A stretch of DNA of 37,536 bases. Source: Promethearchaeota archaeon (GTDB taxonomy: Archaea; Asgardarchaeota; Lokiarchaeia; Sigyniarchaeales; SOKP01). Location: contig JALGVJ010000035.1 of NCBI GenBank assembly GCA_029838195.1, positions 1-37,536 of the forward strand. Reading direction: 5' to 3'. Of the stretch, positions 1,030 to 4,223 are shown one piece after another (the stretch's first letter is position 1; every line of letters starts with the position of its first letter). The notes below the pieces were generated by a model. It was not told where the DNA came from. It saw nothing but the letters and a program-made list of their open reading frames with translations, and ran no database searches. Both the position numbers and the translations under genes were made by a program.

Positions 1030-1695
1030 ATGAACAGGTCGGAAGAACTTTCGGATAAAAGGAAAAAACAAAAGGAATTAATAAGCAAAATAATTGATAA
1101 ACCTGTTAATTTTTTAATTAAACACGATTTCACGCCAAATATTCTCTCTTTTTTAGGATTTTTGTGCATTCTTGTCTCAGCCATACTCATCTCGCTTGGA
1201 TTCATTCATTATAGATTTTGGCTATCTTGGCTCGTTCCATTTTTCCTTCTTTTAGGGGGCGTTTTTGACGTATTTGATGGAGAAGTGGCAAGAAGGACTG
1301 ATAAAGAATCTAATACGGGAGCATTCTTGGATTCAAATTTAGATCGAGTATCTGACATCATTATTATTTTAGGTTTAATTTTAGGGGGGCTCCTTCATTT
1401 TTTACTTGCATTTGTCATCATGTTTTTAATTATTATGATTTCCTACACGCGCGCTAAAGCAGAAAATCAAGGCCTTAATATGCAAGGGATTGGGTTCCTC
1501 GAACGAGCAGAACGATTAATTCTATTAACTCTTGCATTAATCATCGAAAGTTGGATATATAATCTTACGAGGATTTTCTTGCAAACCCCGGTCATGATTT
1601 TTTTCCCAATTTTCATGATAATTTTTACCTTCTTACTATTATTTACATTAGGACAGCGGATTTATTTCTGCATCATTAAACTTATTCATTATTAA
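1030..1695 (+). CDS. CDP-alcohol phosphatidyltransferase (archaetidylinositol phosphate synthase-like)
   Basis: TPN motif, DVFDGEVAR...GAFLDSNLDRVSD family signature, SYTRAKAE and GFLERAER motifs; ORF is open from 979 but ATG 1030 has an upstream AGGA. Confidence 0.88.
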   Translation: MNRSEELSDKRKKQKELISKIIDKPVNFLIKHDFTPNILSFLGFLCILVSAILISLGFIHYRFWLSWLVPFFLLLGGVFDVFDGEVARRTDKESNTGAFLDSNLDRVSDIIIILGLILGGLLHFLLAFVIMFLIIMISYTRAKAENQGLNMQGIGFLERAERLILLTLALIIESWIYNLTRIFLQTPVMIFFPIFMIIFTFLLLFTLGQRIYFCIIKLIHY

Positions 1696-1906
1696 TTTCT
1701 TCAAATCATCTTTCTAATGGGAAAAGAGGTTTCTCTTGAATTTTTTATATTTCAAAATTACATGAATATTATAGCTATTAATTATTTTTTCCCTCTTACT
1801 AAGAAGGCGCTTGGAGGCAAGAAGATTGGAAGAAGTTAATAAAATTTTTTAGGTTTAGAAAACTAATTAACTTTAGAAAAAAACTCAAATAAAAAAATTT
1901 CAAAAA

Positions 1907-1911
1907 GAGGT
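1907..1911 (+). promoter_or_regulatory. Shine-Dalgarno-like GAGGT 7 nt upstream of the eS26 ATT start
   Basis: aaaaaGAGGTaatagatATTcct read directly from the sequence. Confidence 0.6.
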
Positions 1912-1918
1912 AATAGAT

Positions 1919-2194
1919 ATTCCTAAAAAACGAAGGAGCGGAGGTCATACTGGTTCTTCAAAAGGAAATTACGGAAAAGTACAATGTTCAAATTGTGGGC
2001 GATTTGTTGCACGTTCTAAAGCGAAAAAATTTACAACTAAAAGTTCCTTGATTGATAGCCGAATGTATAAAGAGCTTAAGAAAGAAGGAACGATAATTTT
2101 AGGTGGTACTACCAATAAATATTATTGTATTTCTTGTGCAATCCATAAGGGTAAAGTAGCTCAGAGAGCAAAAGTTGAAAGAAAAGGACCGTAA
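1919..2194 (+). CDS. rps26e: 30S ribosomal protein eS26 (S26e), 91 aa, non-canonical ATT start; not in ORF track
   Basis: Manual translation: (M)PKKRRSGGHTGSSKGNYGKVQCSNCGRFVARSKAKKF...YYCISCAIHKGKVAQRAKVERKGP*. It has the MPKKR start, CxxC...YCxSCAIH zinc ligands and length of eS26. No ATG/GTG/TTG between in-frame TAG 1874-1876 and the Pro codon. Confidence 0.93.
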   Translation: MPKKRRSGGHTGSSKGNYGKVQCSNCGRFVARSKAKKFTTKSSLIDSRMYKELKKEGTIILGGTTNKYYCISCAIHKGKVAQRAKVERKGP

Positions 2195-2216
2195 TTTTCT
2201 TTCTTTTTGTTTTTTC
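2195..2216 (+). terminator. Oligo-T archaeal terminator after rps26e
   Basis: ttttctttctttttgttttttc directly after the stop, between convergent genes. Confidence 0.45.
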
Positions 2217-2219
2217 CGC

Positions 2220-4223
2220 TTAAATATTTAATTGCTTGAAAAAAGTAGGCAGAGTGTAAATAATCTCACAGTAATTTTTTTCTATGATTTCAATTATAGC
2301 GCGAATTAAAAACGTTTCTCTCACATCGGGATCTGGTTCATAAATTTTTACTTTTGCTCCTGGTTTTATTTTTAAGGAATAATTTTCCGCAACGCCTGTA
2401 ATGAGCTCATCGGTCCTAATTAAAATCCCTAATAATCCTAATTCATAATGCGAAACAATAAATAGGATTGGTTCTCCCGCTTTTTCTTTCTTTTCTATGT
2501 GAACCACTTCGAGATAATCATTTTGAAGCTCTTTAGGCAAGTTTTTATATGAAATTGTTTTTCTTTTTCCTTTCACGTGAGGAAAAGGTTCATAAAATAG
2601 TTTGTTAAACCCCGATATTTTTTTTATTTGTTCATTATATTTTTCAATATTTTTTACGGAATAAGCCTTATCTAATAATCGATCTAAATTTATTTCCATT
2701 TCATCCATACTATATCCATCTAAAACGGTTGATATGTAAGCCCTTTTCAATTTTTCAATTAAAATTTCACTTTTTAAATCCAAATTATAATCTATAGAAA
2801 TTTCTAAAGCTTGATTATAAAGATTAGTAGCAATTTGAGAATGTCCTAATGCGAGAAAATAATCTCCTAAATCGGTAAAGACGATTATCGAATCTAAAAA
2901 ATTCTCTTCCAGATTCATATTTGAAATATCTTCCATGATTGCCATGGCGGCTCTTCTATCATCGTCATCTTCTCCTCCTTGAAGATATAAAGCAATGGCT
3001 TTCCCAATCAAGCATTTTAATTTAAGCTTGTCATCATGATAAATTTCTGCTAATTCTTCCGTGAAATTGTATTGTTTAATTGCCTCATCAAAAAAAGAAT
3101 GAAAGAGAAGAATTAAAGCTTTTAAATAATTTAGCGTGAGGCAAGTGGGATAATTATGGATGATGGTAGAGAATAGAGCTGCTCGTTCCAATGAATCGAT
3201 AGAAGTGCTGATACGTCCTAAAGAAACTAGCAAAAAAGATCGGAGAAACTCCATCTTAGAAATTTCTGAACAAATCAATTGTTCCACGATTTCATAATCA
3301 CTGGTTTTTTCTAACCGTCCAGAAGCTAATTGCAAAAGGGAGATTAAAAATCCATTTCCTTTCTTTAGAAATGTAACGGCTTGTTTTGTTTCATTTTTTA
3401 TTATAGAGTCTCTTGCTCTTTTTACATACTCTCTTGCTATTTTTAAATTTTCAAGGAAAATTATTATATTTTGAATCATTTCTTCTTCGCTTTGGGGTAA
3501 ATTTTGGTTTTCTAAAAATTTCTCAGCAATAGAAATTTGTTCAGAGAATTTTTTAATTCCAATCTTGAATTCCACCGTTTTATCCCGAATTAATCGAGAA
3601 TCTTGCGTGATGATGGAATCTTCCGTAACAGCTACCGCTCGTTCAATAAGCCATTGAATTTTTTGCTCTGCTGGATAAATATTAGAGCGTTCAATCATGT
3701 AAGAAAGAGTATAATTTAAACTTTTCTTCCAAATATTTTTAAAATAATTTCTCCTCACTTTTTTTATAGTAGTTCGCTGGATCTTAAGAAGAAAACTAGA
3801 TAAAGATAGAGTATTTATTTTCCCATGATATAATAAATTGGTATTTTTTACTAATTTAAAATCATCAGTAACTAAATGGACGGCGCTTGAATTAGTACCC
3901 TCCCGGAGTAATTTTTCCGCCAAAACAATTAAACTTAAATCAGGATCTTGAGCTGGAAATCTTATATTGAAAGATTTTAGTTGATTTTTTATTTTTTCAA
4001 TCTCATCATCTTGAATTTCATGAATTTTCACGACCTCTTTAAATTCTTCTAAAAATGAGGATGATGCTTTAATTTCATGAAAAACTCGTTTGGAAATGTA
4101 ATAATCGTATCCTAATTCCACTCCTACCTTTTTTAAATTATTTAAAAAATCTTTCGCGTGGATGGAATTCATGCAAATAAAGAAATTAGCATCAAATATT
4201 ATCTTCTGTTTTTTTTCCGACAT
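2220..4223 (-). CDS. PIN-domain (Nob1/VapC-like) nuclease fused to TPR-like helical repeats and a C-terminal beta domain
   Basis: IIFDANF, VFHEI, DPDLSLIVLA and LVTDDFKL supply the PIN acidic tetrad; central TPR-like segments such as LGDYFLALGHSQIATNLYNQAL. Confidence 0.7.
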   Translation of the reverse strand: MSEKKQKIIFDANFFICMNSIHAKDFLNNLKKVGVELGYDYYISKRVFHEIKASSSFLEEFKEVVKIHEIQDDEIEKIKNQLKSFNIRFPAQDPDLSLIVLAEKLLREGTNSSAVHLVTDDFKLVKNTNLLYHGKINTLSLSSFLLKIQRTTIKKVRRNYFKNIWKKSLNYTLSYMIERSNIYPAEQKIQWLIERAVAVTEDSIITQDSRLIRDKTVEFKIGIKKFSEQISIAEKFLENQNLPQSEEEMIQNIIIFLENLKIAREYVKRARDSIIKNETKQAVTFLKKGNGFLISLLQLASGRLEKTSDYEIVEQLICSEISKMEFLRSFLLVSLGRISTSIDSLERAALFSTIIHNYPTCLTLNYLKALILLFHSFFDEAIKQYNFTEELAEIYHDDKLKLKCLIGKAIALYLQGGEDDDDRRAAMAIMEDISNMNLEENFLDSIIVFTDLGDYFLALGHSQIATNLYNQALEISIDYNLDLKSEILIEKLKRAYISTVLDGYSMDEMEINLDRLLDKAYSVKNIEKYNEQIKKISGFNKLFYEPFPHVKGKRKTISYKNLPKELQNDYLEVVHIEKKEKAGEPILFIVSHYELGLLGILIRTDELITGVAENYSLKIKPGAKVKIYEPDPDVRETFLIRAIIEIIEKNYCEIIYTLPTFFKQLNI

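Follow-up and report, generated by a model that had tools for sequence, protein, structure and literature searches.

The ATT start of the eS26 gene in an Asgard archaeon appears to be one case of family-wide weak starts

The window, a 37,536-nucleotide stretch of a contig from a Promethearchaeota archaeon, carries an intact gene for ribosomal protein eS26 (1919–2194, plus strand; Pfam PF01283), the sole copy according to a whole-genome profile scan of the 4.5-Mb assembly. The open frame extends from a TAG at 1874–1876 to the TAA at 2192–2194 and translates as KKTQIKKFQKEVID-IPKKRRSGG...; translation from the ATT at 1919–1921 gives IPKKRRSGGHTGSSKGNYGKVQCSNCG...YYCISCAIH.... From this ATT, the match to the Pfam model Ribosomal_S26e reaches an E-value of 3.6e-15 (56.8 bits versus a cut-off of 27), with residues 1–89 aligned to profile positions 1–93 of 108, so that the alignment opens at profile position 1. 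The four-cysteine zinc ribbon (CxxC...CxxC) and the basic N-terminus (M)PKKR are both present, and residues C23, C26, C70, C73, K4 and R5 are invariant in a 30-sequence alignment of orthologues. The features of the locus are as follows.

1874–1876, plus strand: in-frame TAG that closes the eS26 frame upstream (frame reading)
1889–1891, plus strand: ATA, from which the public gene call (101-aa product P0001) begins; unlikely to be the true start
1907–1911, plus strand: Shine–Dalgarno element GAGGT, 7 nt 5' of the start codon (complementarity to the 16S 3' end)
1919–1921, plus strand: ATT, putative initiation codon at the conserved Met1 position of (M)PKKR (Pfam, orthologue column, independent contigs)
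1919–2194, plus strand: eS26 coding sequence, 91 codons plus TAA (Pfam, single copy, alignment)
1985–1987, 1994–1996, 2126–2128 and 2135–2137, plus strand: zinc-ribbon cysteine codons C23, C26, C70 and C73
2048–2194, plus strand: truncated 48-aa TTG open reading frame (ORF) without the first CxxC, the sole canonical-start ORF-finder call here
2195–2219, no strand: T-rich spacer between the convergent eS26 and PIN/TPR genes (sequence)

No ATG, GTG or TTG occurs in the eS26 frame between the TAG at 1874 and the ATT at 1919, and the first canonical codon is the TTG at 2048. A first-pass annotation had described an intact eS26 gene missed by its ORF track, with ATT at the Met of MPKKR, GAGGT 7 nt upstream and no canonical start back to the TAG. 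The Pfam match and the frame reading bear out each of these points, and a canonical ORF finder returns only the 48-residue fragment. For so short a frame the codon-usage log-likelihood (1.7) is indistinct from noise, and Shine–Dalgarno (SD) and homology criteria were used instead. The T-rich spacer likely forms a shared termination zone for the two convergent genes; a bacterial sigma-70/terminator scan, which is not applicable to an archaeon, found no hairpin terminator.

The same annotation had raised a sequence error or a private mutation as possible sources of the ATT. We compared window positions 1500–2600 with Logan contigs from four hydrothermal-vent runs. Three of these runs (X1, X2 and X3), from three studies, cover 1907–1943, and all carry ATT, not ATG, at 1919–1921. 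The X1 contig comes from a divergent strain that differs at 31 of 369 bases, 1916 and 1924 among them, and keeps the ATT.

The 3' end of the genome's own 16S rRNA, ...GGATCACCTCCT, is complementary to GAGGT at 1907–1911. Across the genome, the spacing between GAGGT and ATG peaks at 6–12 nt, and the 7-nt spacer of eS26 lies inside this peak. SD-like tetramers concentrate at positions −17 to −10 (about 37% of well-scored ATG genes), and the TATA-like peak near −30 of the genome's ATG genes is weak; guidance by an SD is thus the usual mode of initiation here. In most eS26 orthologues the codon at the Met1 position, whichever it is, lies 7 nt from the SD anchor, and this constant spacing identifies the Met1 column as the initiation site. 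In a same-genus genome, an ACG stands 7 nt from the SD, and an in-frame ATT 6 nt upstream is only 1 nt from it. AUU 1919 is very probably the start of eS26. An A/T-rich stretch about 25–35 nt upstream could be the TATA box of a nearly leaderless transcript, in which case the mRNA would lack the SD.

The leader and first codons show no significant structure (z = −1.38; 17 of 200 shuffles were as stable), and the window's eS26 leader contains no upstream ORF. As a test of ribosomal-protein autogenous control, we looked for an rRNA mimic or a conserved structured leader of eS26 and found neither; the conserved element upstream of the gene complements the 16S tail rather than mimicking 16S. Looking for a second initiator tRNA, with an anticodon other than CAU, we ran the program aragorn, which found only 15–16 tRNAs in this genome; its single tRNA-Met(CAU) is an ordinary initiator, with A1:U72 and an anticodon stem that contains three G:C pairs.

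eS26 was found in 40 of 40 relatives searched. For the 24 genomes of the source's family, the window included, we read the codon aligned to Met1 and scanned the open frame upstream. Nine have no canonical start (ATT in six, among them the window, ATA in two and ACG in the same-genus genome) and one is ambiguous (ATA with a GTG inside the SD); ATG occupies the position in seven, TTG in five and GTG in two. By contrast, eS26 starts with ATG in all 16 genomes of three sister families, a difference that amounts to effectively one evolutionary event, as related genomes are not independent. The recurrence of ATT, ATA or ACG among relatives argues against a private mutation. A wider sample, with one genome per species, placed the group in Promethearchaeia, the Lokiarchaeia-type Asgard archaea, and contained 61 distinct family eS26 sequences after removal of duplicates: 32–33 have ATT, four ATA, one ATC, one ACG, 13 ATG and nine GTG or TTG, and 38 of the 61 have a near-cognate codon and no canonical alternative. 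Heimdall-, Hel-, Bathy- and Nitrososphaeria-type eS26 genes in the same scan start with ATG, TTG or GTG.

In a tree built from the eS26 coding sequence without its start codon (270 columns, moderately supported and weakly resolved), ATT is found on every basal branch of the family clade and is for this reason probably the ancestral start in this family. At least 13 changes of class (ATG, GTG/TTG or near-cognate) and 17 changes of codon are needed on this tree. Several are reversions to ATG, some accompanied by a strong GGAGGT, and the weak codon is therefore not indispensable. Across the 61 sequences, the third start-codon base is distributed as T33/G23/A4/C1, versus A28/T18/C8/G7 at the adjacent fourfold-degenerate Pro site, which indicates that ATT and ATG are favoured over ATA and ATC. 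Predicted pairing with the anti-SD is absent (dG above −2.5 kcal/mol) from one of 39 near-cognate leaders versus five of 13 ATG leaders, counts that are descriptive only because the sequences are related. An excess of SD pairing at near-cognate leaders is what SD-dependent near-cognate initiation would predict.

An initiation region of the form RGCTGAT-N5-ATT is common to about 29 species and represents an AGGTGAT-type SD with a conserved G-to-C mismatch. In these species (loci L058–L105, for example L061, L062 and L084) the sequence 5' of eS26 reads RGCTGATTTTT-ATT, often with a TAG directly before the CTG. The frame runs CTG ATT TTT ATT CCN, and the CTG or the first ATT may be the start. The entropy of ATT within this subset was set aside as circular, the group being defined by that very feature. 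Two further relatives have unusual eS26 loci. In one (L010:about 1455–1510; G013:C99), an out-of-frame ATG mini-ORF just 5' of eS26 encodes MLKKRKSGGKSSQKT*; it resembles a partial duplicate of the N-terminal coding segment of eS26 and overlaps the main start region, and the likely start of this eS26 is a GTG three codons before the PKKR block. In the other, a 10-contig genome (G024:C6:441741–442036, minus strand), eS26 appears as two overlapping matches with stops within the longer read-through, which suggests a frameshift arising from an assembly indel or a real lesion.

The initiation factor aIF1 is encoded by a single SUI1-family gene (G000:C92:9637–9954, plus strand; locus L164:1423–1740), in which no canonical codon precedes the first Cys of the N-terminal zinc knuckle (ICSMCGLPKDLCLC). 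Eighteen of 22 family genomes (relatives L165–L194) have aIF1 without a canonical start. In those 18, the frame opens just 3' of a stop, with the TGA of the SD-like GGTTGTGA acting as the in-frame upstream stop, which leaves a conserved ATT (ATC in two of them) as the one possible initiation codon and (M)KDDDIC... as the N-terminus. In the remaining four genomes GGTTGTGA itself contains a GTG in frame, and in sister families the start is TTG, GTG or ATG, 8–9 codons before the Cys. aIF1 of S. solfataricus was reported to discriminate against non-canonical starts (PMC6237735). Judging from the reading frames, the factor expected to police AUU itself begins at AUU, in the same family that has weak eS26 starts, and aIF1 is a candidate for autoregulation of the infC or eIF1 type.

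To obtain a base rate for ribosomal proteins, we collected the uS19-to-uL15 cluster from 32 relatives (L132–L163), together with this genome's own (G000:C3:20737–30302), aligned 19 gene families and checked each start for a canonical codon 5' of the conserved N-terminal block. Automatic choice of the start column was dropped, as it picked internal Met columns for uS3, eS4, uS5, uL30 and uL15. A canonical codon is missing from 17 of 350 cluster starts (4.9%) in this family versus 0 of 122 in the sister families. The cases comprise uS14 (IPQGK; 6 of 21), uS3 (IPLAKHF; 4 of 25, this genome included), uL22 (IPNWGY; 3 of 22) and one each in uL14, eS4, uL5 and uL6. Ranked by gene, the rate is 82% for aIF1, 40–62% for eS26, about 29% for uS14, 16% for uS3 and 14% for uL22; the other 15 cluster families contribute 3–4 cases among about 280 starts (about 1%). 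At about 40% of family genomes, eS26 clearly exceeds the mean of the cluster, and only aIF1 has a higher rate.

A Pro codon (CCN) directly follows the start in all four ribosomal hot spots, eS26 (IPKKR), uS14, uS3 and uL22; the families without Pro at position 2 are the 15 low-rate cluster families. Genome-wide, no rule couples an ATH start to Pro in the next codon (Pro at position 2 in 4.8% for ATH versus 6.1% for ATG).

We also searched this genome for open frames with a coding 5' part that lacks a canonical start and an SD pentamer 4–11 nt before a near-cognate codon. Among 20 such frames sent to Pfam, 12 matched a domain from at or near profile position 1, a few to about 25 residues from the proposed start, which lies 23–114 codons 5' of the first ATG, GTG or TTG. 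The proposed start is ATT for an SDR, two ADH genes, one of two Ras-family GTPases, an ABC ATPase and uS3 (L047); ATA for a Dcm methylase, a phosphodiesterase, the second Ras-family GTPase and an Snf7 (ESCRT-III) protein; AAG or CTG for a MinD/CbiA ATPase; and ACG, immediately 5' of the nucleophile Cys, for a C69 peptidase. At least 11 of these genes are non-ribosomal (loci L032–L041 and L051), and their Pfam domains are complete only if translation starts at ATT, ATA, ATC or ACG behind an SD motif. We then classified every SD hexamer that faces, close to its 5' end, an open frame of 80 or more codons, using four shifted-window controls in place of tabulations that had been swamped by in-frame SD-like words and by codons beside true ATGs. 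The classes comprise 125 ATG, 32 TTG, 19 GTG and 72 ATH-only cases, the last versus about 44 expected from the controls. The ATH-only excess is roughly 28, about 15% of SD-led starts, which is a rough figure.

These results weaken the eS26-specific reading of the first-pass annotation, as the weak start is no peculiarity of eS26: aIF1, uS14, uS3 and uL22 have it too, and so do no fewer than 12 further genes in this genome. Because of this breadth, aIF1, as the classical fidelity factor, would be a more obvious hub than eS26. On the sequence evidence, the ATT start of eS26 appears real and conserved, and one case of family-wide weak starts.

We consider SD-dependent AUU initiation of eS26 within a lineage-wide permissive regime the best reading, and a likely one. 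Translation of the sole eS26 gene would begin at AUU 1919 with initiator Met-tRNA, which we infer reads the AUU, after the 30S subunit has been placed by pairing of GAGGU (1907–1911), 7 nt upstream, with the 16S 3' tail. Family-wide, AUU, AUA, AUC and ACG would serve as start codons behind SD elements, aIF1 included. A weak codon would make eS26 synthesis strictly SD-dependent and, often combined with an imperfect SD, keep its output low. Output would then respond to how stringently starts are selected under aIF1, and perhaps also to how many anti-SD tails are free of eS26. Whether the weak eS26 start is functionally tuned or merely tolerated is, in our judgement, evenly balanced.

One alternative is near-neutral, tolerated drift: a lineage of 29% G+C would accept AUH and ACG behind an SD, the codons would interconvert freely, and ATT would have no regulatory meaning. 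The start is indeed labile even within genera (ATT/ACG, ATT/ATG, TTG/ATT and ATA/ATT pairs), dozens of unrelated genes are affected, and the third-base entropy of the eS26 start (1.37 bits) resembles that of synonymous sites. However, the distribution over genes is strongly uneven, from 82% in aIF1 to about 1% in other cluster genes; ATT outnumbers ATA by 8 to 1 despite an A/T mutational bias; and RGCTGAT-N5-ATT is kept in about 29 species while nearby synonymous sites vary. Drift of this kind would account for the lability, but not for the concentration in a few genes or the preference for ATT; we regard it as possible but less likely than not.

Another alternative is the autoregulatory loop centred on eS26 that the first-pass annotation proposed. 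In archaeal (S. solfataricus) and eukaryotic ribosomes, eS26 binds at the mRNA exit channel of the small subunit around the 16S 3' end (PMC11698992), and the loop would have eS26-free 30S subunits initiate on the SD and AUU of the leader, eS26-loaded subunits fail to do so, and synthesis stop at saturation. The S. solfataricus protein wraps the 16S 3' end in a manner incompatible with the SD duplex and is loosely bound, and its excess abolishes the toeprint on an SD-leadered mRNA (PMC11698992). This exclusion of the SD duplex makes feedback by eS26 plausible. Reversible release of yeast Rps26 from mature ribosomes is reported (PMC8880767). In our data, near-cognate eS26 leaders nearly all have an SD at the fixed 7-nt spacing, and the near-cognate rate (about 40% in the family, 62% in the wider sample) is about eight times the cluster mean of 4.9%. 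Against the loop, the same arrangement is found in aIF1, uS14, uS3, uL22 and many enzymes, and the mechanism would be unspecific, every SD-led mRNA responding to it. Moreover, ATG returned several times, in some cases beside a strong GGAGGT, and the leader has neither a conserved structure nor an rRNA mimic. The only direct data that link eS26 to near-cognate starts have the opposite sign: in human cells, depletion of RPS26 lowers ACG-initiated translation (PMC12084008). We therefore regard the loop as doubtful, and the lineage-wide near-cognate regime that includes aIF1 as the stronger result. More speculative still, and improbable in our view, is a version in which the eS26 of Lokiarchaeia-type Asgard archaea would be a dissociable initiation factor that caps the anti-SD tail, thereby silences its own SD-led AUU mRNA and, together with the AUU-started aIF1, forms a two-node homeostat of SD-dependent and near-cognate initiation. 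Such a homeostat, if real, might mark an intermediate stage between SD-guided and eukaryote-like start selection.

That the ATT arose from faulty sequencing or assembly or is a lesion in a pseudogene, or that the real start is the ATA at 1889 used in the 101-residue public call or the TTG at 2048 chosen by canonical ORF finders, is very improbable: three independent assemblies agree on the ATT, the only eS26 copy of the genome has every invariant residue intact, a start at TTG 2048 would lose the first CxxC, the ATA has no SD upstream and adds a 10-residue extension that is not conserved and is closed in the same-genus genome by a stop six codons before the Met1 position, and the SD spacing indicates 1919.

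Existing annotation reflects the unusual start in several ways. A public protein collection lists the eS26 of the window as product P0001 from the ATA at 1889, MKKFQKEVIDIPKKR.... NCBI names many relatives '30S ribosomal protein S26e', with inconsistent starts that are either the ATT (MPKKR..., 90 aa) or other upstream ATH codons (98, 101 or 111 aa). The expectation that eS26 is often unannotated in related genomes thus holds for gene finders limited to ATG, GTG and TTG, but not for NCBI records, which annotate many with non-ATG starts; near-cognate starts of eS26 are implicitly present in GenBank annotations. Full-text literature searches returned no paper that describes near-cognate eS26 or aIF1 starts from Asgard archaea.

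The practical consequence is that gene finders confined to ATG, GTG and TTG would overlook eS26, aIF1 and dozens of further genes of these genomes or call them too short, and homology-based annotators choose inconsistent eS26 starts (101, 98 or 111 aa versus a probable real length of about 90). Such miscalls distort lists of gene content, and comparisons that rely on marker genes, in the archaea most closely related to eukaryotes. In one Asgard family, weak starts appear on both aIF1, which acts on codon fidelity, and eS26, which acts on access to the anti-SD tail. Feedback on initiation stringency, known for IF3 and eIF1, would thereby become directly testable in archaea.

Among known systems, one close likeness is to bacterial infC. 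ATT is a permitted start in NCBI translation table 11, and E. coli pcnB also starts at AUU. IF3, the product of infC, discriminates against AUU and so closes the infC loop; eS26 is not known to have such an activity. Translational autoregulation through the AUU start of infC was reportedly described by Butler in 1987 and Sacerdot in 1996. Like infC, eS26 is an essential gene of the translation machinery with an AUU behind an SD and no canonical alternative. As to conservation of the abnormal codon, many relatives retain ATT (32–33 of 61 family sequences), which is probably ancestral, but the start class changed at least 13 times, several times to ATG. The AUU of eS26 is less conserved than that of infC. 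The functional analogue of IF3 here would be aIF1, which also carries an AUU start.

In eukaryotes, eIF1 is autoregulated through its poor start context (Ivanov 2010, as cited in PMC6237735), and eIF5 and eIF1 control start stringency (PMC3326321). The likeness is that output from a weak site follows global start stringency, so that many genes could be co-regulated through weak starts. The difference is that the eukaryotic systems rely on scanning and Kozak context, whereas here the SD positions the subunit and the weakness would lie in the codon.

S. solfataricus eS26 belongs to the same protein family and occupies the same ribosomal neighbourhood, and it suggests how, in physical terms, eS26 abundance could repress SD-dependent mRNAs, that of eS26 among them. 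The start codon of its gene is not discussed in PMC11698992. In contrast to the present genome, which has mostly SD-type signals, S. solfataricus is a crenarchaeon with mainly leaderless mRNAs. Finally, work on Rps26-deficient ribosomes of yeast and human cells indicates that eS26 occupancy alters the initiation sites used, near-cognate ones included (PMC8880767, PMC12084008), which resembles what is considered here. That mechanism, however, depends on scanning, and loss of RPS26 lowers initiation at ACG, opposite to what an eS26 loop would predict (PMC12084008).
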